Origin: Mobula hypostoma | Taxonomy: Eukaryota | Assembly: GCF_963921235.1 (NCBI RefSeq) | Contig: NC_086097.1 | Coordinates: forward strand, 6,076,001-6,140,000 | Reading direction: 5' to 3' | Length of the DNA stretch: 64,000 bases | In this document: piece after piece, positions 1 to 30,331 of the stretch | How positions within the stretch are numbered: the stretch's first letter is position 1 | Layout: each line of letters opens with the position of its first letter | Position numbers and translations under genes: made by a program | Notes under the pieces: generated by a model | What the model saw: the letters and a program-made list of their open reading frames with translations, nothing else | What the model was told of the DNA's origin: nothing | Databases searched by the model: none

Positions 1-1333
1 TTTTATTGTTTTACAACATTGAATCACAGTGTGTTTAATTTGGCTAATTTGACACTGATCAACAGAAAAAGACTTCTGCATCAAAGTGAAAACCGATCTG
101 TACAAAGTAATCTAAATTAATTACAAATATAAAACACAAATAATTGATTGCAGAAGTATTCACCCCCTTTAATATGACACACCAAATCATCACTGGTGCA
201 GCCAACTGGTTTTTGAGGTCACATAATTAGTTAAATGAAGATCTATTTTTGGAAACCTGTGTGCAGTCAAGGTGTTTCAATTGATTGCAGTAAAAATACA
301 CCTCTATCTGGAAGGTCCAACTGTTGTTAAGTCAGAACCCAAGCAAAAACTAAAAAAGAAGACAAAGGAACACTCCAAGCAACTCCATAAACAATACAAG
401 TCAAGATATGGAAACAAGAAAATTTCCAAGTCACTGAATATCCCTTAGAGTACAGCTAAGTCAATCATCAAGAAACAGAAAGAATATGACACAGCTGTAA
501 ATCTGCCTAGAGCAGACTGTCTTCAAAAACTGAATGACTGTGCAAGAAGGAGACTAGTGAGGGAGGCCACCCACCTATGACAACTCTGGAGGAGTGGCTG
601 AGATGGGAGAGACTGCGCAGACAACGACTGTTGCCCAGGTGCTTCACCAGTCACAGCTTTATGAAGGAGTGGCAAAGAGAAAGCCATTGTTGAAAAAAAC
701 TCACATTAAATCTTGGCTAGAGTTTGACAGAGTCATGTGGAGAACTCTGAAGTCAGCTGGAAGAAAGTTCTATGGTTTGCTGAAACCAAAACTGAGCTTT
801 TTGGCCATCAGACCAAATGTTATGTTTGGTGTTAGCCAAAAACAGTACATCATCAAAAACACACCTTCCCTACAGTGAAGCACGGTGGTGGATGCATCAT
901 ACTGTAGGGATGCTTCACTCCAGCAGGCCCTGGAAGGCTTATGAATGCAGCAAGATACAGGGAAATCCCGGAGGAAAACCTGAGGCAGTCTGCAAGAGAA
1001 CCGTGATTTGGGAGATTTGTTTTCCGGTAAGACTATGACCCCTAGCATAAAGCCAAAGCTACACAGAAATGGCTTAAACAGAACAAAGTTAATATCCTGG
1101 AGTGGCCAAGTCAGAGCCCAGACCTCAATCCAATTGAAAATTTGTGGCTGAACTTGAAAAAATTAGTTCACTTATGATCCTCATGCAATCTGACAGAGCA
1201 TGAGCAGTTTTGTAAGGAAGAATCGGGAAAAATTACAGTGTCCTGGTGTGCAAAGCCAACACAGACTCAAGGCTCACACATAAAAGTTGCTGGTGAACGC
1301 AGCAGGCCAGGCAGCATCTCTAGGAAGAGGTGC

Positions 1334-1369
1334 AGTCGACGTTTCAGGCCGAGACCCTTCGTCAGGACT
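1334..1369 (-). ncRNA. Minimal type I hammerhead ribozyme motif, intact core
   Basis: Minus strand reads AGUC-CUGACGA-AGGGUCUCGGCCU-GAAA-CG-UC-GACU: stem I AGUC/GACU, CUGANGA box, stem II, GAAA, palindromic ACGU stem III, GUC triplet. Confidence 0.85.
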
Positions 1370-1432
1370 AACTGAAGGAAGAGTGAGTAAGGGATTTGAA
1401 AGTGGGAGCACTTACTCACTCTTCCTTCAGTT

Positions 1433-1468
1433 AGTCCCGACGAAGGGTCTCGGCCTGAAACGTCGACT
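1433..1468 (+). ncRNA. Minimal hammerhead motif with a core substitution
   Basis: agtc-ccgacga-agggtctcggcct-gaaa-cgtc-gact (CCGACGA instead of CUGACGA). Confidence 0.7.
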
Positions 1469-1849
1469 GCACCTCTTCCTAGAGATGCTGCCTGGCCTGC
1501 TGCGTTCACCAGCAACTTTGATGTGTGTTGCTTGAATTTCCAGCATCTGCGGAATTCCTGTTGTTTACAGACTCAAGGCTGTAATTTCTGCCGATAGTGC
1601 ATCTATTAAATACTGACTAGAAGGGGGTGAATACTTATTCAAGCACTTATTTTGTGCTTTATATTTGTAATTAATTTAGGTCACTTTGTAAAGATCTGTT
1701 TTCACTTTGGCACTAAAGAGTCATTTTCTGTTGTCAAAGCACCAAATTAAATCCACTGTGAATTATTGTTATAAAACAATGAAACATGAAAACTTCTAAG
1801 AGGGTGAATATTTTTTATATACATATATATTAAATAAATATTTCATAAA

Positions 1850-2090
1850 AAGAACAAAATAAGAAAAAAATAGTGAGGGAACATGGGTTCATTGTCCATT
1901 CAGAAATCTGATGGCAGAGGGGAAGAGGCTGTTCCTGAAATGTTGAGTGTTTGTCTTCAGACTCCTTGACGGTAGAAATGGCACAAGGACATGTCCTGAG
2001 TGATGGGGTCCTTAATGAAGGATGAAGCCTTTATGTGGCATCGTCTTTTGATGATGTCCTTGATGCAGCAACCACTTGTAATTTTTAGGC
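1850..2090 (-). repeat. Rex1/Babar-related 3'-end fragment
   Basis: Same family as 59320-59950 and the reverse complement of 57705-58155 (cagaaatctgatggcagaggggaag..ctgttcctga). Confidence 0.6.
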
Positions 2091-2274
2091 ATTCAGTAAC
2101 ATTTTCAGACAACAGTTATTGTAGTTCAACAGGACATAGAACAAAGAGGAGAAAGTTGTGTGACATTTAGGTGAGAAATTCCAGAATTCCAGAATGTAGA
2201 CACAGCTATCAATAGAAGAGAAATAGAAGCCAAACATGCACAAGAGGCCAGAATTGCAGATAGTTACTAATGGG

Positions 2275-2640
2275 TCATCCTCATCATTATGTGCTGTGTC
2301 ATATGATGTGGGTGATCAGGGTCTTTCCATGATCATGATTGTTCTTGTTAAATTTTTCTACAGATGTGGTTTGCTATTGCCTTTGTAAGGTCTGCGTCTT
2401 TACAAGATGGGTGACGCCAAACATTATCAAAACCTTCAAAGATTGTCCACTTGGCAGCAGTGGTCACATAACCAGGACTTGTGATGTGCACCGGCTGCTC
2501 ACACGACCATCCACCACCTGCTCCCATGGCTTCTCATGACCCCGATGTTACACTTTGCTCAAGGGTGACCTACAAGCTAGCAGAAGAAAGGAGCACCTTA
2601 CACCTCCTTTGATAGAAACTTACCTCCACCCTGTCACTCA
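2275..2640 (-). repeat. Probable RTE-related SINE or non-autonomous element
   Basis: Minus strand has GGCAATAGCAAACCAC (resembles an RTE/BovB-type motif) and ends in a short (TGA)n tail. No ORF. Confidence 0.4.
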
Positions 2641-2649
2641 TAGCAATGG

Positions 2650-3220
2650 GTAGGTGAAACAAATGTTCAGCTTTCTGTCATTGGTTACCTGAGAAAGATG
2701 TTACAACTTAATAAAACATTGGCTAGTTTGCATTCAGAGTATCTTATCTGCAGTTCTGGTCTCCAAAACGTGGGAAATGTTACTGAGTTGCAGGTAGTAC
2801 GGAGGATTTTTACCAAAACGTGGCTTTGATTGGAGCATTTTACTTATAAAGAAAACTTAAAGAATGGTTGTTTTCTTTAGAATGGTGATCTGATGAAGTT
2901 GTAGAAAACTCTGAGCAGAACAGAAAAGATAGATGGTAAAAACTTATTTTTTTCCACTATGATGGGGGCTTCCAACACAAAACAGCAGGTCGAAGTTAAT
3001 GCACACAAAATACTGAGGAACTCAGCAGGTCAAGCAGCATCTATGGAAATGAACAGGTGGTCGATGTTTCAGGCTGAGACTCTTCTTCAAGACTTCGAAG
3101 TTTAGTGTTGGGAACTTCTGAGAGAATCTGAAGGAGTTATTTTTCACACTGGGAATGGCTGAACTCTGGAAAGCACTGCTGGAAAAGGCGGTAGAAGCAG
3201 ATATTCTCACAATATTTAAC
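2650..3220 (+). repeat. Old CR1 3' fragment interrupted by a degenerate Penelope-like pLTR piece (~2972-3095)
   Basis: Degenerate CR1 C-terminal coding sequence; the pLTR piece has a decayed hammerhead at ~3059-3094. Confidence 0.6.
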
Positions 3221-3224
3221 ACCC

Positions 3225-3412
3225 AGTGGTTAGCATGGCACTATTACAGCTCTGTGTTCCAGAGTTTGGACTTCAATTCAGCGCTGTCTGTACAGAGCTA
3301 GTACATTCTTCCTGTCAACTGCGTGGGTTTCTTCCAGGTGCTCTGGTTTCCTCCACTATCAGAAGATGTACATGTGATTTGGCCAGGATTAAATAGGTGG
3401 ATTTCTAGCTGG
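3225..3412 (+). repeat. V-SINE (HE1-like)
   Basis: V-domain gtgggtttcttccaggtgctctggtttcctcc after a decayed tRNA-like head. Confidence 0.7.
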
Positions 3413-4128
3413 ACCACAAATTTGAGAAAATCTGCAGATGCTGGAAATCTAAACAAGACACACAAAATGCTGGAGGAACTCAGCAGGCAAGGACACTTCT
3501 ATGGAAAAGAGTACAGTCGACGTTTCAGGCCGAGATCCTTCATCAGGACTGGAAAAAAAGATGAGAGGTCAGAGTAAGAAGATGAGGGAGGGAAGGAAGA
3601 AATACAAGTGATAGGTGAGACTGGGAGGGCTGAAGTAAAGAGCTGTGAAGTTGATAGGTGAAAAAGATAAAGGGCTGGAGAAGGCGGAATCTACTAAGAG
3701 AGGACAGAAGACCATGGAAGAAAGGGAAGGGGGTGGAGCACCAGAGGGAGGTGATGGGTAGGCAGGGAAATAAGGTGAGAGAGGGTAAAGGGGATGGGAA
3801 ATGGTGAAGGAGCGGGAGGATGCCATTGCAGGAAGTTTGAGAAATCAGTGCTTATGCCATCAGGTTGGAGGCTACCCAGATGGAATATAAGGGGTTTCTC
3901 CTCCAACCTGAGTGTGGACTCATCTACTGCAGTAGAGGAAGCCATGGACTGAAATGTCAGAAAGGGAATTTGAAGTGGAATTAAAGTGGGTGGCCAACTA
4001 TGAGATTCCCCTTTCTCTGGTGGACAGAATGTAGGTACTCGGAGAAGTTGTCTCCCAACCTATGTCAGGTCTCACCAATATACTGGAGGCCACATTGGGA
4101 GCACCAGATACAGCAGATAGCGCCAACA
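3413..4128 (-). mobile_element. 5'-truncated Penelope-like (Neptune-type) element: GIY-YIG C-terminus plus pLTR
   Basis: Peptide LRLEEKPLIFHLGSLQPDGISTDFSNF; colinear with 47609-48278; hammerhead at 3515-3550. Confidence 0.85.
3515..3550 (-). ncRNA. Minimal type I hammerhead ribozyme motif, intact core
   Basis: Minus strand: (C)AGUC-CUGAUGA-AGGAUCUCGGCCU-GAAA-CGUC-GACU(G). Confidence 0.85.
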
Positions 4129-4219
4129 GACCTAGCTGGTGTGGCTCATTTGGCTGAAAAGTCCTGTTCTGAGATGTATCTCTGAATAAATGCATAGATA
4201 ATAAGCATCTACGTAGACT

Positions 4220-4740
4220 GTTATAGCCAGGGTGGTAATGGGGATAAGTGCCCACTACCTAGTAAATACTCCCAATAGTGTGCATTTCTGACAACCAGGC
4301 TCTGACAACCAAGTCTAGCCACTGGCCTTTATGTGTGGCTTAGCTACTAGTCCAGTTTCTACTGACAGGAGAAGGGGCAAAGGCAGATTACTAGCGCATT
4401 AAAACCTGTTGCTTTGTGCAGATGAGGCTCGTCAGCCATCTTTGTCAGCTCATCCAGGAGAAGAAATACTCTGATCTGAAACCTTTGCTGCCTTATAACT
4501 ATCCCCACTCATGGCGAAGACTTCAAGAGTGAATCTGGACATGGAGTCTCTGAGGCAGAACCTTGTTGAGTTCAACGCAGACTGGCAGCTTCTGTGATGC
4601 CGCCGGTGCCAAGCTGTATTGATCTCTGCCATTCTTTTGGCTTCATCAGATGCGTGGAGAGGCGGAGCCTGCAGCATGGGCAACAGGGTGCTCTCCATAT
4701 CGCACTACCCTAGTTTGCATCCTGGCCTGTGTATCACCTA
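4220..4740 (+). repeat. RTE-clade 5'UTR-like repeat
   Basis: ggctcgtcagcc...ccaggagaagaaatactctgatctgaaacc resembles RTE 5'UTR motifs. No ORF. Confidence 0.4.
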
Positions 4741-4889
4741 GAAAGCTGGGACCTTGATCAACCATGAGTTACAGGTAAGAACCGAAATTGCCAAGACACA
4801 TTGAAATGTTGTTGGAAACGTTGTTAGAAATGTGCAGTATGCAGACCTATTGACAGTATTGCACAACTGGTCCCTTGGTGTACGTCCAA

Positions 4890-5620
4890 TGTTCAAAGTA
4901 CATTTATTATCAAAGTAGGTGTGCAATATACAACCCAGGGATTTGCGTTCCCATAGACAGCTATGAAACACAGAAACACCGTTTTATCTGGCCAAAGAAA
5001 ACATCATACATTCAGCACACAAAAAAAGAACAAATCATGCAAACAGCAAAAAAACAAGCGAAAAACACTGAATTTAAGCATCAAACCACAGAGTCAATGA
5101 AACAGTCGAGGAACCTTCAGGTTAGTTCAGTCCAATTCAATTTATCATTGTGTCTTTCGTTAACTGCTGGCCACAGAGCAAGTTCATCCTTATCAAACTT
5201 TCACAAAGTAGTAATAAAAAAAGGAGTAACCAGAAACCAGAGACACATCATTACATGAATTGCAGTGACCAATCCACAAACTGCATTGATTAAACCTTGC
5301 CCAAGAACCAAGACTCCAGAAACATTGAGCGAGAGGAAGAGAGAGACTGGTCGAACGCAGGAACCTTCTTCCAGGAGCACCAAGTGAGAAGGTGGAAGAG
5401 AGAATGGTCAAATGGAGACATTTTCCTTGGGCAGGCAGATGGCACTCACCTTTCATTCTTGTCCTAATTGATTTCAATCTTGCCCAACGCTTTATTCGGT
5501 GAGATGGTCAAGAAGTGGTGTCGATTGTGGTCAGGATCCCCGTCTCTAGGCTTCTTGGCCTCCAAGCCCCATACTCAGCTCCAAACCTTACGGAACACCC
5601 TCGGAGAAAGCCAAGTGCCA
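4890..5620 (-). repeat. Non-autonomous LINE-tail element
   Basis: 3' end TACTTTGATAATAAATGTACTTTGAAC on the minus strand; related ends at ~14496, ~40260, ~47335. Confidence 0.55.
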
Positions 5621-5994
5621 AATTACTCAGTCGGCCTGAAATCACTTCATCAAAATGCAAACCACATGCTCCGATTGGAGCAGAACCATATCTGAAAGAA
5701 GAAGTTTTTCATGAAATGTCTGAAGGATATTTATTGCCTTTAGTCTCATTTTGTTTGCTGGCAGCATCTTCTTCTTCAACTATGTGGAAGAAATAGCACA
5801 ATGACAGCTTTATAAGTCTGTGAACATTTAACCAGTGGATTAATAATGTGGTGTATGTTGGAGTGTTGGCGTGTTTTTGGCAGTTGATAACAGTTGTCAT
5901 TCTAGGTTAAAATATAAACCATGTAGTGGCAAGCAAAGACACAAAAGATTGCTGATGCTGGAATCCGAAGAAACACACTAAAAGCTTATTTTTA

Positions 5995-6460
5995 AAGTGA
6001 AGGTTCATAGGCTTGATAAGGCATTGTTCAGCCTGTATTTGGAGTATTGCGAGCAGTTCTGCAACTCTTACCTAAGAAAAGATGTGCTGGCATTGAAGAG
6101 GGTCAAGAGAAGGTTAGTGAGAATGATTCCAGGAATGAAAGGGTTAATTTATGAGGAGCGTTTGATGGCTCTGGGCCATCAAATCTATTGAATATTAAAA
6201 GGCCTAGATAGAGTGATTGTGGAGAGGGTGGTGAATCTGAAGAATTTATTACCACAGACGGATGTGGAGGCCAAGTTATTGAATATATTTAAAGTGGAGG
6301 TTGATATGTTCTTTATTAGTTCGGGAGGAAAAGGCTGAGGAGAATCAGGAGAATGGGGTTGAGAGGAATACTAAATCAGCCATGATTGAATGGTGGAGCA
6401 GGTTCAATTGACTGAATGTCCTAATCCTGCTCCCATGTCTCATGGTCTTATGGTCTTGAC
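5995..6460 (+). repeat. CR1 LINE 3' fragment
   Basis: LYLEYCEQF..YLRKDVLALKRVKRRLVRMIPGMKGL; (tatggtct)-type tail. Confidence 0.85.
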
Positions 6461-7117
6461 CTAGTGGTAAGTGAAGGTCTGTATCAGGCAAACCTGGTAG
6501 GAAGCACATAATCATAATTCAGAGATTGCAGTAGGATCTGGACCAGCTGGAAGATGGCAGATAGAATTTAATGCAGACAAGTGTGATGTGTTGAACTTTG
6601 GTAGGACCAACCAGGTTGGGTCTTACATGGTGTGGGGTCAGGCACTGAGAAGCATGGTAGAACAGAGGAATTTAAGAGTACAGTTTCACAATTCCTAGAG
6701 CATGGTGTCACAGTAAGATAGGGTCATTAGAAAAGCTTTGAGCACATTGCCCTTCATAAGTCAATGTATTAAGTGCAGAAGATGATGGTGAAACCTAATT
6801 TGGATGGGGTTTGGTCACCTATCTATAGGAATAATATCAATAGGACTGAAAGGATGCAGAGAAACTTTACAAGGACATTGCCAAGACTTGAAGACCTGAG
6901 TTACAAGGAAAGGTTGAACAGGTTAGGACTATTCTGTAAAGCAGAGGAGAATGAGGAGAGATTTGATAGAGGTATACAAAATTATAATTGGTATAAATAG
7001 GGTAAACGCAAGCAGGCTTTTTTTCTACTGCTTGCTCAGATTACAACTAGAGTCATAGGTGAAAGACTGAAAGGTTTAAGGGGAACTTGAGGGGAAACCT
7101 GTTCACTCAGAAGGAGG

Positions 7118-10028: not shown

Positions 10029-12792
10029 GGTTCCGGGGTCGAGTATGGAGTGAGTCGGTGCGTGTGAGTGTGGCTCCCGATTTTTATTGAAAATCCACCT
10101 GTTTATCTTTGCCGTATGCTCGAGATAACTGGATACTTACCATTGTGAACAACGCGGGACATAGCTGGACATTGAAATGGCAAGTAGAATGTACCTTCGA
10201 AGTAAAGCTGGGGAAAAAGATAGCGAAGCCTCGAGCAAGAAGGCGGATGTTACAGTAATGGCGCCGTTGCACGCTGCTGGAGCTGGGCCCGGACCTGCCC
10301 TACCCGATGACTTGGGGAGGCTTCATTTAGTGCTTATTACTGACATGACGCAAGCGGTGCATTCTGCCCTAAAAAGAGAACTTGAAGATGCTTTATCACC
10401 AGTGACTGCTACCATGGAACAAATTACGTCTGCTTACGAGTCACAGGGCGAACGCATTCGTGAGGTTGAAGACGGCCTGAGTGATTACAGTGACCGGCTG
10501 GTGAGCGCCGAAGCCGCCATTGCAGCGTTGCAGAGCGAAAACGCAGTTCTGAAGGGAAAGCTAGATGACCTCGAAAATCGGTCGCGGAGATCCAATTTGA
10601 GAGTGGTCGGCATTCCTGAAAATTTGGAAGGTACGGACCCTGTTAAATTTATGACCGAGTTTTTTGACGAAGTGCTGGGGACAGATTTTTTCCCAAGTCC
10701 TCTCGTACTTTCGCCTGCTCACCGAGTCGGACATAAACCATCCGGTGTCTCTGGAGCCAAGCAAACGAGACCAAGAACGTTCCTGGTTTGCTTTCACTCC
10801 TTTCAAGATAAGCAACGCATCATCAACAGACGGAAGCAGGAGCTGTATTTCCGCGGACACCGCGTGTTTTTTTATGAAGATTTTAGTGCGGAGCTGGGTA
10901 AAAAACGAGCAGCTTTCAAGGAGGTGAAATCCCTGCTTTACGGGAAGGGGGTCAGGTTCGGCCTCTTGTATCCTGCCCAGCTCTGGGTCATGCATGAAGG
11001 TAAAAAGCATTATTTCCATACACCAGAGGCGGCCAAAGAGTTTTACCATTCGCGCTGGGGAGAAGAAGAACGAGAAGAGCAATGACTTTTTTTTTAGGTT
11101 ATTCCTGCAGCATTGAAGGGACCTCATGCCGAAGCAAACTGTTAATTTTCACAATCCACTTCTTTGTTCATTTTTTCCAGTTTAATTTGTGGAACGCGAT
11201 CGGGTCGAACTGCTATGCTGCCGAAACTGATTAACAAAAACTTTCAACCAGCAAAATGTAAATATTTGGGATTTATATCTCGGGTGTTTAAGTTGCCCAG
11301 TGTGTTTTTTTTTTGTTTTTAATGCTTAGCTTGACCTGTGTTATCTTTAGCCTATATGTTATATTAAAGGTAGTATAAGTGATAGGATAAATTTTAAGGA
11401 GGGGAGCCACCCTAGATTAGATTGAAAATTGGGTTGTATGGGGAACGCCTTGGAAGTTTTTTGTTGGGTACTGCCTGCGATCATCCTCAATTGGGGAGGT
11501 AGATCTAGGCTTCGGGGGTTAATTGGGTTTTTTTGTTTGTGTAAAGGGGTGAGGGGAGTGTTTTGGGGGATTACCATGGCAGTTTATTCTTTTGTGTGTT
11601 ACGGATTGATCAGACTTTCTTTTCATTGTGCGTTATTGTGTGCAACTTATACCCTCGCACTGTTTTGGATTGTAGGCCCTGTGTGTCTTTTGATATGGTT
11701 AACATGAGTGCAGCTGATGGAGGCCACCCTGTGAGGTTTATTTCTTGGAATGTAAAGGGGCTCAATGGTCCGGTTAAAAGAGCTAAAGTTTTCTCTCATC
11801 TGAAACAATTAAAAGCAGATATACTATTTCTACAAGAGACACATTTAAGAGTGGAGGACCATAATAGACTTCGTAAAGCATGGATTAGTCAGGATTTTCA
11901 TTCCAGATTTAATAGTAGGTCCAGGGGGGTGGCAATATTAATCACCAAAAGAATGCAGTTCACACCATCTGATGTAATCAGTGACCCTAATGGTCGCTTT
12001 ATTATAGTCTCTGGCTCTCTCTTTCAGATACCTGTTATTTTGGTAAATGTTTATGCTCCTAATTGGGATGATGTCCAATTTGCAAATAGGGTTTTGTCAT
12101 TAATACCTAACCTGAATACACATAAGCTAATCTTTTCCGGAGATTTGAACTGTGCTATTGACCCACTGCTTGATAGGTCTTGCCCTAGGGGAACATTTTC
12201 TGGTATGGCAAAGGCCTTCTCGATGTTTATGCAACAAAATGGTTATATGGATCCTTGGAGATTTTTGAATCCATCAGTTAGGCAATTCTCTTTCTTCTCT
12301 CATGTTCACCACTCCTATTCCAGGCTAGACTATTTCTTTATAGATAATTCCTTGATACCTATGATTAGACAAATTGAATACACTGCTATAGTTATATCTG
12401 ATCACTCGCCCGTGAAACTGGACCTATGTTTTCCTTTAAACGTTAGAGAACGGCCTCTGTGGAGACTTAACCCCCTTTTGCTTTCTAATGAGAAATTTTG
12501 TAGTTATATATCGGCTAACATTGACACATTCTTCGAGACTAACAAAACTGAGTCGGTATCGTACTCTTTACTTTGGGAAACTTTAAAAGCTTACTTGAGG
12601 GGTCAAATAATATCTTATACTTCACATGCCAATAAAGAGCATAGGAAGGAAATGCAAGTGTTATTGCAATCTATTTGGGACCTGGATAGAAAATACTCTG
12701 AGGCACCCACTGCGGAATTATATAAAAGCCGGGTTGATTTGCAAGCGAAGTTTAATCTTCTATCTACAAACCTATCAGAACAATTAATTCTT
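10029..12792 (+). mobile_element. L1-clade LINE, 5' intact and 3' truncated
   Basis: CpG-rich 5'UTR, ORF1, T-rich inter-ORF spacer, APE domain. Flanked by AAGTTATGATATTGT at 10014-10028 and 12793-12807. Confidence 0.92.
10177..11085 (+). CDS. L1 ORF1p (coiled coil, RRM, CTD), 302 aa, open
   Basis: KLDDLENRSRRSNLRVVGIPE, AHRVG, RPR, FYEDFSAE..KKRAAF, LLYPAQL. Confidence 0.9.
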   Translation: MASRMYLRSKAGEKDSEASSKKADVTVMAPLHAAGAGPGPALPDDLGRLHLVLITDMTQAVHSALKRELEDALSPVTATMEQITSAYESQGERIREVEDGLSDYSDRLVSAEAAIAALQSENAVLKGKLDDLENRSRRSNLRVVGIPENLEGTDPVKFMTEFFDEVLGTDFFPSPLVLSPAHRVGHKPSGVSGAKQTRPRTFLVCFHSFQDKQRIINRRKQELYFRGHRVFFYEDFSAELGKKRAAFKEVKSLLYGKGVRFGLLYPAQLWVMHEGKKHYFHTPEAAKEFYHSRWGEEEREEQ

Positions 12793-12801
12793 AAGTTATG
12801 A
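11695..12801 (+). CDS. L1 ORF2 truncated after the APE endonuclease and linker; no RT
   Basis: ISWNVKGLN, LQETHL, NVYAPN, GDLN, SRLDY, SDH, WRLN, WETLKAYLRG. First in-frame ATG is at 11695; the stop TGA lies inside the right duplication. Confidence 0.88.
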   Translation: MVNMSAADGGHPVRFISWNVKGLNGPVKRAKVFSHLKQLKADILFLQETHLRVEDHNRLRKAWISQDFHSRFNSRSRGVAILITKRMQFTPSDVISDPNGRFIIVSGSLFQIPVILVNVYAPNWDDVQFANRVLSLIPNLNTHKLIFSGDLNCAIDPLLDRSCPRGTFSGMAKAFSMFMQQNGYMDPWRFLNPSVRQFSFFSHVHHSYSRLDYFFIDNSLIPMIRQIEYTAIVISDHSPVKLDLCFPLNVRERPLWRLNPLLLSNEKFCSYISANIDTFFETNKTESVSYSLLWETLKAYLRGQIISYTSHANKEHRKEMQVLLQSIWDLDRKYSEAPTAELYKSRVDLQAKFNLLSTNLSEQLILKL

Positions 12802-15585: not shown

Positions 15586-16345
15586 CATAAGAACATAAGA
15601 ATTAGGAGCAGGAGTAGGCCTTCTGGCCCATCAAGCCTGCTCCACCATTCAATAAGATCAAGGCTGATCTGGCCATGGACTCATCTCCACCTAGCTGCCT
15701 TTTCCCCATAACCTTTAATTCCTCTACTATGCAAAATCTATCCAGCCTTGTCTTAATTACATTTACTGTTGTAGCCTCCACTGCTTCATTGGGCAAAGAA
15801 TTCCACAGACTCTCCACTCTCTGGGAAAAGCAATTCCCCCTCTTCTCCGTCCTAAATCTACTCTCACGAATCTTGAGGCTATGTCCGTTAGTTGTAGTCT
15901 CATCTTCCATTGGAAATAACTTTCCAGCCTCTATCTTACCTATCCCTTTCACAACTTTATTTGTTTTGATAAGATATCCCCTTATCTTTCTGAATTTCAG
16001 TGAGTACAGTCCCAGGCGACTCAATCTCTCCTCGTAGGTTAACCCCTTCATCTCTGGAATCAACCTGGTGAACCTCCTCTGCACTACATCCAAAGCCAGT
16101 ATATCAGTCCTCAAGTAACGAGACCGGAACTGCTTGCAGTACTCCATGTGCGGCCTCACCAGTATCCTGTATATTTGCAGCATAACCTCCCTACTCTTAA
16201 ATTCAATCCCTCTAGCAATGAAGGCCAACATTCCATCTGCCATCTTGATAACCTGCTGCACCTGCAAACCAACATTTTGTGATTCATGCACAAGAACGCC
16301 CAAGTTCCCCTGCACAACAGCATGCTGCAATTTTTTACTATTTAA
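15586..16345 (-). repeat. Relatively young CR1 3' end
   Basis: 242-aa open frame (LVRPHMEYC..QRRFTRLIP..YEERLSRLGL); (tcttatgt) tail. Confidence 0.9.
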
Positions 16346-16587
16346 GTATTAATCTGATGACCTCGCATTCACCAACATTGTACTCCATCTGCCAGGCCCT
16401 TGCCCATACACTTAACCTATCTACATCTCTCTGCAGACTCTCCGTATCATCCGCACAATTTGCTTTTCCATTCAATTTAGTATCATCAGCAAACTTAGAT
16501 AAACTATGCTTGGTCTCCTCTTCCAGATCATTAATATATATCGTGAACAGGTACGGGTCCAGCACTGACCCCCTACGGCACACCATT

Positions 16588-16820
16588 TGAAGCGCACCTT
16601 CAATAACTACAAAAGACTGAAGTTGGGTAAAATACTGAAAGGCTTTTATTCGCTGTGCAACAATCTGACCTCCATGGTGAGTGTCTGCCCCTGGACTGAG
16701 GGGGAGGGGCAAGGCGAAACACCTTTATACAGGATTGTGTGGGAGGAGCCACAGGGGCAGTCAGCAGAGGGGCGTGTCCAGACAGTTAACACAGTTACAA
16801 CATATATATGGTTTACCATA
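16588..16820 (-). mobile_element. Solo LTR, 233 bp, probably Ty3/Gypsy
   Basis: 5-bp duplication CCATT at 16583-16587 and 16821-16825. Minus strand runs TA(TG-derived)...CA, with TATAAA followed by AATAAA. Confidence 0.8.
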
Positions 16821-17175
16821 CCATTCACCACTGATTACCAACCAGAGAAACACCCATGTATCCTAATGCTCTGCTTTCTATTAGTTAACCAATCCTCTAT
16901 CCATATTAATACACCACACCCAACTCTATGTATCCTTATCTAATGGATAAGTCTTTTATATGACACCTTCTCAAATACCTTCTGGAAATCCATGTAAGTA
17001 ATGTCCATCTGTTCTTCTCTATCCACTGCACTCATTATATCCTCAAAAGAACTCTAAGTTTGTGAAACAGGACTTGCCTTTGCTGAATCAATGCTGCATC
17101 TGCCTGATGGATCCATTTCTTTCCAGATGCCTCTCTAGTTCTTCTTTAATGATAGCTTCAAGCATTTTCCCAACT

Positions 17176-20100
17176 GTCCGTCTGTCTAGGTATCATATCC
17201 GATGCGGACTTTGGTGACCATGGTTTTCCATATAGATCTATCCTTCATTTTTTGGATGACTTCTATTTCCTCAATGTGTAGCAACCTGGCTATACTTTTG
17301 ATGTACATAAGCCGAGGTCTTCCTCTAGGTTTGCTCCCCTCAATCTTTCCACAGAGGATAAGTTTTTCTAGTTCATCTTTCCACATGATGTGTCCTAGGA
17401 ATCTGAGTTGACTTTCTCTTGTTGTTGGTATGAGAGATGGAACTGCTTGGGCTCTTCTGAGAACTTCTTCATTTGATGTGTGTGTGTGGTCCATGATAAT
17501 TTTAACATTCTCCTGTAGAACCATAATTCAGCTGCTTCTAGTCTCTTTTCCATTGCTGGAGAAATGGTCCAGCATTCACTTCCATAAGTCAGGATAGAAT
17601 AAATGTAGCACTGCTGTATTCTGTTTTTAGTGTACGTGCTCATCTTTCTTTCTGTTAAAATGGTCTTCATTTTTTGGAAAGCTTCTTTCGCCGTTGCTAT
17701 TCTGTATTTGATATCTATGTCGCACCTGCCATTACTTGTTATTAGGCTGCCAAGATATTTAAATTTGTTGACTTGTTTGATGTTTGTAGTTCCGATCTTG
17801 ATCACACGTTGTGGGATGTTTGTCTTTCTGGAGATGACCATGCTTTTTGTCTTCTTGGTGTTGATTGAGAGGCCTCTGTGATTACTTTCTGCTGCCACTA
17901 TAGTGAGTAGTCCTTGAAGTTTTATTTCTGAGTCAGCTATTAGTACGATGTCATCAGCATATCTGATGTTAGTTACATTATGGCCTCCAATTGTGAATCC
18001 TTTGATGTCTTTGATACTTCTCAAGATATTTTCACTATACAGGTTGAATAAGCCTAGTGAAAAGACACAACCTTGCCTGACTCCTCTCATGATATTCACA
18101 TACTCATTCACTTCTCCTTCTGTTCTGATCGATGCTGTCTGGTCCCAGTATAAATTTCTTAAGAAACGTATATCTTTCCCACCTATGTCAAGATCTTGAA
18201 GCATTTCCAGAAGATCTTGCTGTCTGACAGTGTCAAAAGCTTTTGTATAGTCAATGAAACATAGGTAGATGTCTTTTTGTACCTGGATAGCTCATTCACT
18301 GATCATCCGTAGCACGAAAATTGCATTTCTGGTTCCAGTGTTTTCCACAAAGCCGAATTGTTCCTTACTGATTTCTGGTTTTATACAGCGTCTTGCTCTC
18401 ATCATGATTACTCTGAGAATAATTTTTGCTACGTGGCTCATCAGGCTTATTGTACGATGTAACTCACATTCTGTTGCTCCCTCTTTCTTTGGAAGTGTGA
18501 TGAACACTGATTTACTTAAATCATCAGGTATCTCCCCATGATCATAGATTTCATTTGCTATTTCTGTTATTTTCTCTATTCCAAAATCTTCTAAGGCCAG
18601 TATCATTTCAACAGCGATGTTGTCTGGACCAGTTGCTCTGTTATGTTTTGTTTTATTTATGGCTGCTTGAATTTCTGATTTTAGAATGCTAGGTCCTTCA
18701 AGATTCTTCTTTATGTTCGGTTTTTCTCCTCTTTGGTCTTCAAAAAGTTCTTTTATATATTCTGTCCATCTGTTTAGGATTTCCTCTTTGTTCATAATTA
18801 AGCTGCCATGTTTTGCCTTGATGCAAGGTAATTTCCCCATTAGTTCTTTAATCTTATTGTGCATCAACTTTGTTCCAGGGTTATGGGTTTGTAGCATTTC
18901 TGTCTCTGAGCATTTCTCATTTAGCCATCTGTCTTTAACTTCTGTGCATTTTCTTTTTATTGTCTTATCAGGTTGTTTGTATTCTTTGCTGTCTCTTAGT
19001 TTGATGGTCTGCTTTTGTTGCATCAATTGTATTATATCTTCAGTTATCCATTTCTTTTTACTTTTCCGTTCTTTTCGTGGGATGGTTTCTTTTGCAGCTA
19101 CAACCATGGATTCCTTCAGTATGTCCCAGGAAAATTTGCGTCCTTCATCCTGCAGCAATTGAAAATGGTTTTTCACCTTGATTGCGTATTCTGCTTTCAG
19201 ATGAGCGTTGTTTTGTAGTTGTTGATAATCTAGTGGTTCTGATCTTTTTGGTTTCTTTAATTTTCTCATCTTTATTTTCATTTTGCAAATGACTGGTGTG
19301 TGATCGCTTCCACAGTCTGCTCCAGGGTAGCTTTTAGATTGAGTTATCGAGTTTTTGAATCTGTTATTGATTGTTATGTAGTTGATATGGTTTTTGTTGT
19401 TCCCATCTGGGCTTCTCCATGTCCATTTCCTTCTTGGATGTCATTTAAACCAAGTGTTGGTGATTATCTGATAGTTTGTTTTACACCATGATGTAGGCTT
19501 TTCTCCTCTTTCATTTCTTTCTCCCAGTCCCTGGTCTCCAACAATATGGTCTTCTCATCCCTCACCAACTTTTGCATTGAAGTCACCCATGACTATGATG
19601 GCTTCTTGTGATTTGCATTCTTCTAGTGCTTATCTAGGGAGTGGTAGAGGCATCAATTTCTTCCTCTGAGCTTTCCATTGTGGGTGCGTATACTTGGATG
19701 ATAGAGATGTTTTGTTGTCCTTTTAGTTTGATTAGCATCATTCTGTCTGAGATACGCCAGTATCCTAGCAGACTCTTGGATGTTTTTTTGTCTAAGATGA
19801 TTGCAACACCCTTTTCATGTTTCTCTCCACCAGAGTATCTCATCCTGTAGTCGTCTGATTGGAATACTCCAGTGACTTTCCATCTTATTTCACTTAGGCC
19901 TAGGATGCTGACTTCTAGCCTCTTCATTTCTAATTTTACGTTTTCTAGCTTACCAGCTTGGTGCAGGGTTCGAATGTTCCAAATGGCAATTCGCAGTCTC
20001 TTGTTCTTGCAGACAGTAGTGGTATGATTAACCATGGTTGTACTAGGGATAAAATACAAGAAGTAGCTTCCCCTTGCTTGCTTCCGATGCAGTGTCTTTA

Positions 20101-20370
20101 CAAGACGGGTGACCCTGAACATTGTCCTATTAAAAGGATCTACTGCTCAGCGTCTGAGAAGCAGGAACCATTGACTGTGTTACTCACAACTTGCCTTCTG
20201 CTTCATCCACCACCTGCATTCCGTGGCTTCACTGTAACCCAAGTAGGGAGGCTAACAGGTGCTACATCTTGCCTAATGTGACCTGGAGGTAGCTGTGGTT
20301 AATGGTATCCTCATTATCCAAAACAAATGCTCCACAGCCCGATGTAGTTTATCTTCATATCCAGGAGAGA
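17176..20370 (-). mobile_element. Near full-length RTE-clade LINE with a disrupted APE-RT ORF (~20035 to 17186)
   Basis: IAIWNIRTL..LGLSEIRW..IIQVYAPT (APE); RTISLMSH..EQFGF, GVRQGC, IRYADDIVL (RT); RGRPR C-terminus; GACAGACGGAC tail directly after the stop; no ORF1. Confidence 0.92.
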
Positions 20371-21155
20371 TTTTTTTTAAGTTTGTTTAAGTTTATTTCA
20401 ATAAACTAACAGAAAATTGTGTAGATTGAATACTGAAGCCAAATGGAAGTAACTCTTCAACAAACACAACCCAGCTCCCTTTCATTCCTTTATATTTAAA
20501 GTAACCAATATCTGCTTCATAATAAACAGAAGGAAAGTCACACAAATAAACATTTCCCAAAGTAAAAAGGATGAAATTCTTGTGTTTTATTCTTGATGTG
20601 TAATTCAACCTGGCTTTGTAGGTTTTATCCAGTTGCTATCCTTGTCTCAGACTCAAAGTTTAAGAACGTCAATACTTTCTACTTCTATATCTCTAAAAAC
20701 TATAACAGAGTCAATCTTCCATTCAGAGATACCTGGAAAGTGTTGTTCCACACCATAAACACTAGCTTAAATAGTGAACCTCTGGAAGCAATCTTTTCAT
20801 ACTTCTCACCCTGAAATCCCCCGCCATCAGGTCAGCGAGAATTAAAGATAATTTTTTTCAAGTTCCTCTTTAGAACAGGGATTGAAATGGAATAAAATGT
20901 CAGCATTAGGATGGTCGCCCCTCTGAAAATTAACATCGAATCTCAGCGGGTCATCAGTCAACTTTCCTTTAACAACAACTATTGATTCTTCACTTAATTC
21001 TTCATCAAATTTTGCGTACAGGAATAATCGGGCGGTAGAGCTTGAGGATGTTCATTGTGCGGGAGGTCGAGGCGGCTCAGACACGACGGGAACGGACGGA
21101 CGAACACGACCGGTTAACGGACGCTGCCCTGCCCACACAACCGTTCGCCTTGGAT
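20371..21155 (-). pseudogene. Processed single-CRD galectin-like pseudogene (CDS remnant 21055 to 20653); absent from the ORF track
   Basis: Manual translation across frameshifts: MNILKLYRPIIP/LYAKFDEELSEESIVVVKGKLTDDPLRFDVNFQRGDHPNADILFHFNPCSKEELE/KIIFNSR*PDGGGFQGEKYEKIASRGSLFKLVFMVWNNTFQVSLNG/KIDSVIVFRDIEVESIDVLKL*. CpG-rich ~100-nt leader; AATAAA at 20397-20392 then A8 at 20378-20371; no introns. Confidence 0.85.
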
Positions 21156-21976
21156 TTTTCCCAACTACAGATGTTAAACTAACTGGCCTATAGTTACCCA
21201 CCTTTTGCCTACTTCCTTTTTTGAACAGTGGAGTGACATTCGCCGTCTTCCAATCTGCCAGGACCTGCCCAAATTCCAGACAATTTTGGTAAATTATCAC
21301 CAAAGCCTCAACTATAACTTCTTCCATTGCTTTCAGTACCCTGGGATGCATTCCATCAAGACCAAGGGACTTACCTATGTTTAGGCCCACAAGTTTGCTC
21401 AGCACTACCTCTTTAGTGATAGCTATTGTATCGAGGTCCTCACCTCCCATCGGATCCCTATCCTTTCTATTTGGCATGTTAGACATATCCTAAACGTAAA
21501 GACCAACACAAAATTGTCATTACCCAATATCAATTCCCCCTCTCGTCCTCCAAGGAAGCTATGTTCACTTTAGCCTCCCTTTTCCACTTTATATAATTAT
21601 AAAAACTTTTACTATTCATTTTATATTTTGTGCTTGTTTTATAATCTAGCGTCCCTTTCTTTATTGCTCGCTTAGTGGTTCTTTGTTATTTTTTAGTGTT
21701 TTCCCAATCTTCCAGTTTCCCACTACTCTTGATGACTTTGTATGCATGAGCTTTTAGTCTGATGTCTTCTTTTAATTCCTTAATTATCCAAGGCTGGTCA
21801 ATGTGCAAGTTAAAGTTCCCCATGATAATTGCTGTTCCATTCTCACATGCCTCAGCTATTTCTCCGTCTACTGCCTGTCCCACTGTAATGTTGTTATTCG
21901 GTGGCTGATAAACAACTCCCATCAGTGATTTTTTTTCCCTTTACTATTGCTAATCTCTGCCCAGATGGATTCAACA

Positions 21977-27610: not shown

Positions 27611-27748
27611 GTATAAGGGGCTTATAAAAAATTTTCAACCCTTTGCAAGTTTTCATGTTTTATTGTGTTACAGCATTGAATCACGGTGCATTTAATTTGG
27701 CTTTTTTTGCCACTAATCAACAGAAAAAGACTCTTTTGTGTCAAAGTA
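27611..27748 (+). repeat. Tc1 inverted-repeat fragment, same family as 1-1820
   Basis: ttttattgtgttacagcattgaatcac...atcaacagaaaaagact..tcaaagt matches positions 1-88. Confidence 0.85.
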
Positions 27749-28938
27749 ATTTTCAAAAGGCTTTTGACAAGGTCCCACACAGGAGATTAGTGTGCAAACT
27801 TAAAGCACATGGTATTGGGGGTAAGGTATTGGTGTGGATAGAGAATTGGTTGGCAGACGGGAAGCTAAGAGTGGGAATAAACGGGACCTTTTCAGAATGG
27901 CAGGCAGTGACTAGTGGGGTACTGCAAGGCTCAGTACTGGGACCCCAGTTGTTTACAACATATATTAATGATTTAGACGAGGGAATTAAATGCAGCATCT
28001 CCAAGTTTGTGGATGACACGAAGCTGGGCGGCAGTGATAGCTGTGAGGAGGATGCTAAGAGGATGCAGGGTGACTTGGATAGGTTAGGTGAGTGGGCAAA
28101 TTCATGGCAGATGCAATTTAATGTGAATAAATGTGAGGTTATCCACTTTGGTGGCAAGCAAAGGAAAACAGATTATTATCTGAATGGTGGCCAATTAGGA
28201 AAAGGGGAGGTGCAAGGAGACCTGGGTGTCATTTACACCAGTCATTGAAAGTGGGCATGCAGGTACAGCAGGCAGTGAAAAAGGCAAATGGTATGCTGGC
28301 ATTCATAGCAAGAGGATTTAAATACAGGAGCAGGGAGGTTCTACTGCAGTTGTACAAGGCCTTGGTGAGACCACACCTGGAGTACTGTGTGCAGTTTTGG
28401 TCCCCTAATCTGAGGAAAGACATTCTTGCCATAGAGGGAGTACAAAGAAGGTTCACCAGATTGATTCCTGGGATGACAGGGCTTTCATATGAAGAAAGAC
28501 TGAATCGACTAGGCTTATACTCTCTGGAATTTAGAAGATTGAGGGTGGATCTTATTGAAACATATAAAATCCTAAAGGGATTGGACAGGCTAGATGCAGG
28601 AAGATTGTTCCCGATGTTAGGGAAGTCCAGAACAAGGGGTCACAGTTTAAGGATAAAGGGGAAGCCTTTTAGGACCGAGATGAGGAAAAACTTCTTCACA
28701 CAGAGAGTGGTGAATCTGTGGAATTCTCTTCCACAGGAAACAGTTGAGGCCAGTTCATTGGCTATATTTAAGAGGGAGTTAGATATGGCCCTTGTTGCTA
28801 AAGGGATCAGGGGGTATGGAGAGAAGGCAGGTACAGGGTTCTGAGTTGGATGATCAGCCATGATCATACTGAATGGTGGTGCAGGCTTGAAGGGCTGAAT
28901 GGCCTACTCCTGCACCTATTTTCTATGTTTCTATGTTT
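27749..28938 (+). mobile_element. Young 5'-truncated CR1 (RT C-terminal half)
   Basis: FQKAFDKVPH, SGVLQGSVLGP, YINDL, KFVDDTKL, LVRPHLEYC; single frameshift near 28230; (tttctatg) tail. Confidence 0.92.
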
Positions 28939-28939
28939 T

Positions 28940-30028
28940 AAGCATTTACCAACATTGTACTCCATCTGCCAGACCCTTGTCCACTCAATTAACCTGACAG
29001 ATCTCTCTTCAGACACTCCATATCTTCTGCACAATTTACTTCTCCACTCTATTTAGTATCATCAGCAAACTTAGATACACTACACTCGGTCCTCTCTTCC
29101 AGATCATTAATATGTATCGCGAACATTTGCAGGTCTAGCATCGACCCCTGCGACACCCCACTCACCACTATCTGCCAACCAGAGAAACACCCATGTATCC
29201 CAACTCTCTGCTTTCTATTAGTTAACTAATCTTCTATCCATGCTAATACATCACCCCAACTCAATGCATCCTTACCTTATGGATAAGTTTTTTATGTGGC
29301 ACCTTATTGATCGCCTTCTGGAAATACAAATAAATAACATTCATCTGTTCCCCTCTATCCACTGCACTCATTATCTCCTCAAAGAACGCTAGTAAGTTTG
29401 GCAATCCATGCTGCGTCTGCCTGATGGATCCATTTCTTTCCAGATGCCTCGCTATTTCTTCTTTAATAATAGCTTCAAGCACTTTCCCAACTACAGATGT
29501 TAAACTAACTGCCAAATAGTTACCTGCCTTTTGCCGACATCCTTTTTTTTGAACAGTGGTGTGACATTCACTGTCTTCTAATCCACCAGGACCTGCCCAG
29601 AGTCTGCAGAATTTTGTTAAGTCATCCATCAAAGCCTCTACTATAACTTCTACCGTTTTTTTCAGTACCCTGGGAAGCATTCCATCAGGACCAGGGGACT
29701 TGTCTATCTTCAAGCCCATGAGTTTGCTCAGCACTACCTCTTTGGTGATAGCTATTGTATTGAGCTCCTCACCTCCCATCGCACCCATAACATCTCTCTT
29801 TGGCATGTTAGACGTGTCCTCCACCATGAGGACCAACACAAAGTAGTCATTCAAAGCCTTGGCCATTTCCTCATTACCCAATATCAATTCCTCCTTCTCG
29901 TCCTTCAAGGGACCCACGTTCACTTCAGCCACCTTTTCCTGCTTTATATAATTATAAAAACTTTTGCTATCCATTTTTATATTTTGTGCTATTTTATTTT
30001 CATAATCTAGTTTCCTTTTCTTTATTAC
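28940..30028 (-). repeat. CR1 RT fragment
   Basis: KSPGPDGMLPRVLK..VSLTSVVGKVLE..FQKAINKVPH; shows the empty site equivalent to 17175/21156. Confidence 0.85.
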
Positions 30029-30331
30029 CCACCTAGGATTTTTCTGTTTGGAGCGAAGAAAGATGACAGGTGACTTGCTGGAGGTATTCAAGATAATAAG
30101 AAGCATAGATCAAGTAGCCAGACAGAGACTTTTTCCCAGGGCGGAAATGGCTAATAAGTCAGGGCATAATTTTAAGGTGATTGGAGGAAAGTATAATTGA
30201 GGATGTCAGAGGTTTTTTTTTTACACAGATAGTGGGTCGTCTGCTTACAGCCGCCCAGGAGAGAGGCATTGCAGTCAGTATGCTCCACCAGAGATACTGG
30301 GAGCAGACTGGCATAGTGCCGGCACACTGGA

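Follow-up and report, generated by a model that had tools for sequence, protein, structure and literature searches.

The 64,000-nucleotide (nt) stretch of the genome of the ray Mobula hypostoma analyzed here (contig NC_086097.1, positions 6,076,001 to 6,140,000; hereafter, the window) harbors an insert of 3,980 bp within the reverse transcriptase (RT) gene of a long interspersed nuclear element (LINE), bracketed by an 11-bp duplication (TTTTCCCAACT). The insert consists of two parts joined head-to-tail, that is, a putative copy of a "galectin-8-like" messenger RNA and a LINE of the RTE type. Since a single duplication encloses two unrelated, co-oriented, and directly joined retro-sequences, it is very probable that the galectin mRNA copy and the RTE entered the genome in one integration event. 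Concerning the way in which the two parts came together, the course of events that appears probable on balance is that the RTE reverse transcriptase copied its own RNA and then switched to the poly(A) end of the galectin mRNA.

The 11-mer TTTTCCCAACT is present twice in the window, at positions 17165-17175 (on the 3' side of the insert) and 21156-21166 (on the 5' side, where it reads AGTTGGGAAAA in the minus sense); the expected number of occurrences was 0.10, and none of 100 shuffles gave two matches. Reading the minus strand from 21166 to 17165, the order of the segments is AGTTGGGAAAA, leader, galectin coding sequence (CDS), 3' untranslated region (UTR), a run of eight A residues (A8), RTE, and AGTTGGGAAAA again. 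The galectin part and the RTE are thus both on the minus strand, and A8 passes into the RTE 5'UTR without any gap. The boundaries were also checked with a boundary-repeat test, whose background was a repeat of at least 11 nt in 8 out of 20,000 random boundary pairs. When the whole insert was considered, the 11-mer repeat was found at offset 0/0; when either the RTE or the galectin part was considered alone, the same test disclosed no flanking repeat, and counting A8 as flank yielded merely "AAAA". The statements of the initial annotation that an 11-nt duplication splits the RT gene of a LINE, and that both parts lie inside it, are therefore borne out.

These data bear directly on the idea of two independent insertions that happened to abut, in either order. 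Poly(A) tracts can attract endonucleases, and the two parts of the insert have decayed to a different extent (see below), both of which speak in favor of separate events. However, neither part has a duplication of its own, no A residues are located 3' of the RTE, the outer 11-mer is intact at offset 0, and the second event must have struck one exact phosphodiester bond. Two successive insertions are, on these grounds, highly improbable.

The sequences on the two sides of the insert belong to one and the same element. The 3' portion of the host LINE (RT and downstream region; 15602-17164, minus strand) aligns to positions 29076-29492 of the window, and its 5' portion (the N-terminal part of the RT; 21167-21922, minus strand), recognized through its homologs, aligns to positions 29483-30026. 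In other words, the flanks of the insert align head-to-tail to a paralogous LINE copy (29076-30026), the left one ending at 29492 and the right one starting at 29483, so that this copy contains a single target site (29482-29492) and can be used as a proxy of the empty site. A copy with one target site had been pointed out near 29471-29505 in the initial annotation, and the flank alignment places it there. The paralog is part of a LINE RT fragment extending over 29076-30109 (minus strand). The RVT_1 domain of the host LINE was matched on 16338-16712 with an E value of 1.3e-6 and 28.7 bits, slightly below the Pfam cutoff of 29.6; at the protein level, 140 homologs were retrieved at E<=1e-5, many of which carry apurinic/apyrimidinic endonuclease (APE) and RT domains. 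Judging from these alignments, the interrupted host is an older LINE, hit in its reverse transcriptase gene.

Contigs from four public sequencing runs, retained at 80% likeness and counted in 160-nt bins set to the insert boundaries, were also compared with the locus. Two of them (X1 and X2) are DNA contigs from one sample of organism A, the third (X5) is DNA from organism B, and the fourth (X10) comes from organism A and is guessed to be RNA. Contigs joining position 17164 to 21156, with 3,991 nt skipped and 11 letters shared, were found in all the runs (18 in X1, 23 in X2, 19 in X5, and 5 in X10). As a separate observation, 1,529 of the 13,491 X5 contig pieces over 16856-21655 are at least 99% alike to the window, i.e., the RTE and host-LINE families are close in organism B; such closeness could reflect slow evolution or recent common ancestry.

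The RTE part spans 3,195 bp (17176-20370, minus strand) and is near full-length, with the N-terminal region of the ORF present; its RVT_1 match has an E value of 1e-17. It comprises a 5'UTR (about 20370-20123), starting with TCTCTCCTGG, and one open reading frame (ORF) of the APE-RT type (20122-17186), interrupted by two frameshifts and three to four stops. The copy is about 61% identical to residues 40-984 of P0010, an APE-RT protein of 987 aa for which precomputed domains are PF03372, PF14529, and PF00078; two frameshifts and three in-frame stops are visible in this alignment, to which a fourth stop close to the first frameshift can be added. Out of 1,489 candidates, 277 proved to be homologs at E<=1e-10, many of them about 1,000 aa long, with PF03372, PF14529, and PF00078, and encoded by contigs of about 3.3 kb. 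Their names include "craniofacial development protein 2" and "endonuclease-reverse transcriptase", which are presumably marks of RTE or BovB derivatives. Since Pfam scored no APE domain at E<=0.01 in the N-terminal ORF pieces of the window copy, the APE assignment of the latter rests on its homologs.

At its 3' end, the RTE tail (...GACAGACGGAC, also written ...CCTAGACAGACGGAC) adjoins the duplication with no A-run between them, so that the absence of poly(A) at this point, already remarked in the initial annotation, is confirmed. With its 3,195 bp, the element agrees with the length of about 3.2-3.3 kb usual for the RTE type, and it has a single APE-RT ORF and a short 3'UTR that closes with a simple motif instead of a poly(A) tail; its size, its single ORF, and its non-A tail fit an assignment to the RTE type. 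As for its distance from the family, at least about 34 private substitutions (roughly 1%, a lower bound) were recognized among the 40 of 392 difference rows listed. The three in-frame stops of the main alignment (at 18291 and within 19440-19634) are all TGA, and P0010 has R or D at two of these positions, a pattern that could have arisen from CGA codons through CpG decay.

The galectin part (21155-20371, minus strand) begins with a CpG-rich leader (21056-21155), whose first 100 nt contain 14 CpG (observed/expected ratio of 1.33). An Rfam scan of 20000-21400 gave no match to the leader at E<=1, and its only hits were two chance-level ones, i.e., snR76 (E 0.32) in the RTE 5'UTR and a coronavirus 5'UTR model (E 0.7). 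A tripartite chimera with a small-RNA leader was also taken into account, and it is unsupported, given that Rfam finds no known small RNA there.

The leader is followed by an intronless but broken CDS (20653-21055) of a "galectin-8-like" protein with a single carbohydrate-recognition domain, with an ATG at 21055 and a TGA at 20655-20653. Its longest frame piece matches Gal-bind_lectin (PF00337) with an E value of 5.7e-10 and 39.2 bits (cutoff 22.1), and it shares 93% identity with a stingray "galectin-8-like" protein and 85-89% identity with shark, sawshark, and chimaera proteins of 147-148 aa; in the protein search, which covered proteins of 108-2,000 aa, 6 of 24 candidates were found at E<=0.001. 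The frame-by-frame alignment showed that residues 1-147 are all represented in the copy, even though the CDS is 403 nt long instead of the 444 expected. The lesions consist of two 1-nt deletions (near codons 12-14), a 1-nt insertion in an A-run at about codon 69, one in-frame TGA, and a 40-nt deletion around 20715-20721. The 7 nt bounding this last deletion can be aligned to either side of a parent-like contig (described below); the deletion is located off the inferred exon borders and looks like the outcome of microhomology or slippage. Concerning those borders, the isoform models of the galectin diverge after "NNSFQ", before "VPCTAKF", and before "RFDVNFQ", which suggests, on the basis of the compared sequences, that the parent gene has introns at these three points. 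The window copy is continuous through all three.

The CDS is followed by a 3'UTR of 274 nt (20379-20652), with AATAAA at 20397-20392, and, 13 nt past this signal, by A8 (20371-20378), presumably a poly(A) remnant. A basking-shark isoform model (P0004) ends with LLK* inside AATAAA, and its C-terminal part aligns with positions 20629-20396 of the 3'UTR; to judge from this alignment, the galectin 3'UTR is conserved across sharks and rays. The same region contains a 71-aa ORF (20393-20608, minus strand), counterpart of the C-terminal part of P0004 (annotated as "isoform X1"), and this model, in which the UTR is read as protein, probably results from mis-splicing in the annotation. Overall, the sequence features of the galectin part indicate that it is most likely a copy of a spliced, polyadenylated mRNA. 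The order reported in the initial annotation (leader, CDS, 3'UTR, AATAAA, 13 nt, A8, RTE) was recovered at the positions given there, but its CDS turned out to be a broken one, with three 1-nt indels, the 40-nt deletion, and a stop. The locus also departs from the layout of a processed pseudogene, in which poly(A) is directly followed by the target-site duplication, in that A8 leads into the RTE.

The depth of the contigs along the locus reveals how different the two parts are; the summed contig depth is no copy number, and the values below can be read only qualitatively. In X1 and X2, the RTE tail has a depth of about 66,000, which shrinks towards the 5' end until about 1,000-1,500 are left; this is the usual profile of 5'-truncation, and the element belongs to a high-copy family. 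For X1, X2, and X5, respectively, the bin that closes the RTE (20216-20375) has a depth of 941, 1,461, and 2,085, as against 30-39, 40-48, and 81-136 in the four bins of the galectin part; the drop at the junction bin is 28-fold in X1, 33-fold in X2, and 19-fold in X5. The possibility that the galectin segment is a module of the high-copy RTE family, which the initial annotation had put forward as the finding that would undo its interpretation, is ruled out by this 19- to 33-fold fall. Since the last RTE bin keeps 0.75-0.80 of the depth of the four preceding bins in X1 and X2, the similarity within the RTE family reaches within a few tens of nucleotides (about 40) of position 20370. In X1 and X2, the galectin depth exceeds that of the single junction contig (16.6) only by a factor of about 2-3, and it could be accounted for by the window locus plus the exons of the parent gene.

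A spike can also be observed in the RTE 5' region, at 20056-20215, where the depth reaches 8,209 in X1, 10,500 in X2, and 36,823 in X5, the neighboring RTE 5' bins having values of about 1,000-7,000. Part of this region seems to be common to a more abundant repeat, perhaps a non-autonomous derivative.

The initial annotation had made its interpretation depend on the physical continuity of the junction between the two parts. This junction is bridged by a 212-nt DNA contig of X1 (record 2), which covers 20247-20458 with 0 differences. Repeats are prone to misjoining, and the contig probably derives from the sample used for the assembly itself, so that an assembly artefact joining a galectin retrocopy to an RTE has some points in its favor; nevertheless, the contig is a de Bruijn one, made apart from the assembler, its depth of 16.6 is ordinary, and the duplication around the insert is precise. 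An artefact is, for these reasons, barely credible.

Further information on the galectin part comes from X10, in which a single contig (record 13), 781 nt long and with a depth of 5.4, matches 20378-20721 and 20715-21078 in colinear order and is the sole contig over the galectin bins (depth 5.3-5.4). It differs from the window at 39 positions in 701 nt (94.4% alike). Its alignment is gapped once in the UTR piece and three times in the CDS piece, and over this span it has 42 letters more than the window; it has the 40 nt and the three 1-nt positions altered in the window copy, with the reading frame restored. Because its gaps match the lesions of the window copy, it represents an intact relative rather than the window locus. 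Towards the leader, the fit of this parent-like contig ends at 21078, with 24 loose letters beyond, so that the outer 77 nt of the leader (21079-21155) are unmatched by it; the guess can be made that the mismatch is due to an alternative first exon.

At the other end, the contig fits from 20378, the first A of A8, so that no A of the run beyond this one would be templated in it, and its 14 more letters match neither the A-run nor the RTE. Because these 14 end letters fit neither, the parent-like gene appears not to template the A-run and to have no RTE behind it, and this favors an origin of A8 from poly(A). The observation is relevant to a 5' transduction, which supposes a source RTE located directly behind the parent gene and behind a genomic A-run about 14 nt past AATAAA, with retrotransposition of a spliced read-through RNA. 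The same single duplication and the same orientation are expected from such an event; moreover, an AAAA is present at the second nick of this insertion, on the RTE side, making RTE 5' ends beside A-runs plausible, and both 5' transductions and chimeras between L1 and mRNA exons, mostly with near full-length L1, are documented in the available part of one study (bioRxiv 10.1101/2025.02.02.635956). Nonetheless, besides the end letters of the parent-like contig, which enter neither A-run nor RTE, read-through demands an RTE within about 20 nt of the polyadenylation signal together with the failure of that signal; in the available portion of the same L1 set, 6 of the 17 junctions fall exactly at splice donors and none is described behind a poly(A) signal. 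A read-through origin is therefore considered unlikely, even if it deserves to be kept in view.

On the basis of these data, a switch of template by the RTE enzyme might be pictured as follows. The RTE endonuclease would have nicked the + strand after ...CCCAACT, inside the older LINE. Reverse transcription would then have started at the own, non-poly(A) tail of the RTE RNA; priming at the RTE tail is proposed because the latter adjoins the duplication and has no A-run. Synthesis may have run to, or very near, the 5' end of the RTE RNA, and the enzyme would have switched there to a second template, a spliced and polyadenylated "galectin-8-like" mRNA, entering it at the poly(A) end and copying it up to the mRNA 5' end. 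A second-strand nick 11 nt off would have left one duplication around both parts, the product being a bipartite cDNA from one RTE-driven, target-primed reverse transcription. A8 would be what remains of a shrunken poly(A) tail, and the copy, either non-functional at the start or later, would have decayed since. Both the order of synthesis and the template jump are inferred from the anatomy of the insert.

The same anatomy would be generated by other kinds of join within one insertion, namely RNA ligation or trans-splicing before reverse transcription, or the capture of a free galectin cDNA at the open 5' junction during end-joining repair, and it cannot, on its own, separate either an RNA-level join or cDNA capture from a template switch. 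Joining by a ligase depends on a cyclic phosphate at the 3' end; polyadenylated mRNAs do not have one, and this counts against ligation. The junction is located past a complete 3'UTR, AATAAA, and an A-run, not at a splice donor, and neither filler nor microhomology is visible where A8 meets TCTCTCC. In favor of a join at the RNA level, ligation has been reported ahead of the retrotransposition of U6/L1 chimeras (PMC6789731), and trans-splicing has been proposed for L1-mRNA chimeras (bioRxiv 10.1101/2025.02.02.635956), as far as the available text of the two works goes. Taken together, joins of these kinds are clearly unlikely as the source of the insert.

Some of the data weigh against a template switch by the RTE reverse transcriptase. 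First, a single locus is involved, and a self-comparison of the window disclosed no second copy of either the RTE or the galectin segment, hence there is no other RTE copy in the window to compare. The A-run is just 8 nt long and could be genomic; the second-strand nick of this very insertion likewise comes after AAAA (GGGAAAA^), so that nothing unusual would be needed for an RTE to sit behind a genomic A-run. The 5' end of the RTE family is placed by 160-nt depth bins only, and in X5 the last RTE bin has only 0.46 of the depth of the preceding ones. Regarding the supporting contigs, the one bridging the junction is probably not independent of the assembly, and the parent-like one comes from a run that is only guessed to be RNA and may derive from a paralog.

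Lastly, frame-breaking indels are in excess in the galectin part, with 4 in 444 nt of the galectin CDS (20653-21055) vs. 2 in 2,841 nt of the RTE ORF (17207-20047), corresponding to a binomial P of 0.004. This excess hints that the two parts may not share one simple history; possible reasons are a defective template mRNA, gene conversion of the RTE from paralogs, or the re-copying of an older chimera. This last case is that of a secondary copy, in which the galectin segment was already the 5' leader of a small RTE lineage and decayed there while the ORF was under selection. The indel excess is what speaks for it, whereas a galectin depth of 30-48 in X1 and X2, for which the window locus and the parent exons could suffice, speaks against it, as does the finding that none of the 6 proteins retrieved in the galectin search carries an RT domain. 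A secondary copy is thus very unlikely. Compared with these alternatives, a switch of the RTE reverse transcriptase from its own RNA to the galectin mRNA remains the reading adopted here, as probable on balance.

Structures similar to that of the window locus have been described in other systems. Chimeric retrogenes consist of a full-length cellular RNA and a co-oriented LINE flanked by direct repeats, and in the part of the source that is available they are attributed to RT template switching (PMC2104539). According to the same text, in the chimeric retrogenes of mammals and fungi (U6-L1, mRNA-L1, and the WEIRD-MGL "MINE"), the RNA copy is located directly 5' of a co-oriented LINE, one pair of short direct repeats surrounds the two, and the 5' partner is apparently a whole RNA (PMC2104539). 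The direct, same-orientation join and the flanking repeats are found also at the window locus; regarding a full-length 5' RNA, the CDS, 3'UTR, AATAAA, and A-run are present, while the leader stretch 21079-21155 is unmatched. The window locus is unlike the chimeric retrogenes, as far as these are described there, in that it involves an element of the RTE type, without a poly(A) tail, in a cartilaginous fish, and in that its LINE part is near full-length, whereas that of the chimeric retrogenes is randomly 5'-truncated (PMC2104539). Moreover, its 5' partner is an apparently complete polyadenylated mRNA joined via an A-run, unlike the partners of the chimeric retrogenes covered by that text. From the arrangement of its segments, the window locus would thus work like the chimeric retrogenes of other LINEs, but with an end-to-end join.

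The resemblance to chimeras between L1 and gene mRNAs is also close, in that the accessible part of one report describes a near full-length LINE with a sense mRNA at its 5' end and one duplication (bioRxiv 10.1101/2025.02.02.635956). In this set, as presented there, 15 of the 17 mRNA or lncRNA pieces correspond to the transcript start, and in 6 of 17 the end coincides exactly with a splice donor; to explain them, trans-splicing or source elements located in introns have been proposed (bioRxiv 10.1101/2025.02.02.635956). The window locus differs from the set so described by containing an apparently whole mRNA, with 3'UTR, signal, and A-run.

As for the enzymatic step, the R2 reverse transcriptase reportedly jumps end-to-end between templates in vitro (work reportedly by Bibillo and Eickbush, cited in bioRxiv 10.1101/2022.11.04.512097). 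If an enzyme, having reached the 5' end of one RNA, went on at the 3' end of a second one with no need of homology, precisely the junction observed here would result. This is a biochemical property of another clade than RTE.

Other retroelements share single traits with the locus. In Nicotiana, the bodies of RTE elements gain unrelated 5' sequences through a switching of the 5'UTR, and that study counts the fusion of a host mRNA with a LINE body among the conceivable origins of such sequences (bioRxiv 10.1101/2022.11.04.512097). The new 5' ends of the Nicotiana elements are there given as of unknown origin and subfamily-wide, while the window locus has an identified donor but exists as one decayed copy that gives no indication of having spread. 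Short interspersed nuclear elements (SINEs) with RTE or CR1 tails likewise combine a foreign 5' part with a LINE-derived 3' end that gives recognition (the "stringent" model); in the section of the source available, they have small RNA heads transcribed by RNA polymerase III and only the tail of a LINE, whereas the window locus contains an RNA polymerase II mRNA and a whole LINE (PMC3747384). Retroposition mediated by long terminal repeats (LTRs) also places a copy of a host mRNA within a retroelement via RT template switches; LTR flanks, microsimilarity at the junctions, and partial mRNAs, which characterize it in the available text, are all absent from the window locus (PMC5131818). No report of an mRNA-RTE chimera was found in open-access papers and bioRxiv.

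Two other LINE sequences are embedded in the window. The first (10165-12801, plus strand) has two ORFs, one of 306 aa that gives weak coiled-coil-type matches and, after it, one in which an Exo_endo_phos domain was recognized (E 2.1e-14); the second is an RT fragment (27628-28248, plus strand) with an RVT_1 match (E 4.6e-21).

L1, for which any poly(A) RNA can serve as template, is the element to which retrocopies are commonly attributed. Reviews consider LINEs that depend on recognition of their own 3' end, CR1 and RTE among them, to be inefficient at producing retrocopies (PMC3747384, PMC5470649). Many retrocopies, for the most part species-specific, are reported for cartilaginous fishes in a 2026 preprint, in which they are assigned to CR1 or Tx1 by correlation only (10.64898/2026.06.26.734816). 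A retrocopy welded to a near full-length RTE within one duplication would represent a direct footprint of the enzyme responsible. The locus shows a possible bypass of poly(A) recognition, in which priming occurs on the tail of the LINE itself and addition of the mRNA follows. One dead copy does not establish a general route to retrogenes, and it is doubtful that RTE LINEs, which recognize their own tail rather than poly(A), regularly complete reverse transcription with a jump off their 5' end and onto the poly(A) of host mRNAs, thus forming a general, L1-independent source of the many lineage-specific retrocopies in cartilaginous fishes. With regard to the RTE family, the locus would be a concrete instance of the fusion with a host mRNA that the Nicotiana study, in its available part, merely proposed (bioRxiv 10.1101/2022.11.04.512097). 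If RTE LINEs did regularly jump to host mRNAs, such fusions would also be a route by which RTE lineages try new 5' leaders, and the window locus would be the first one caught with an identified donor.

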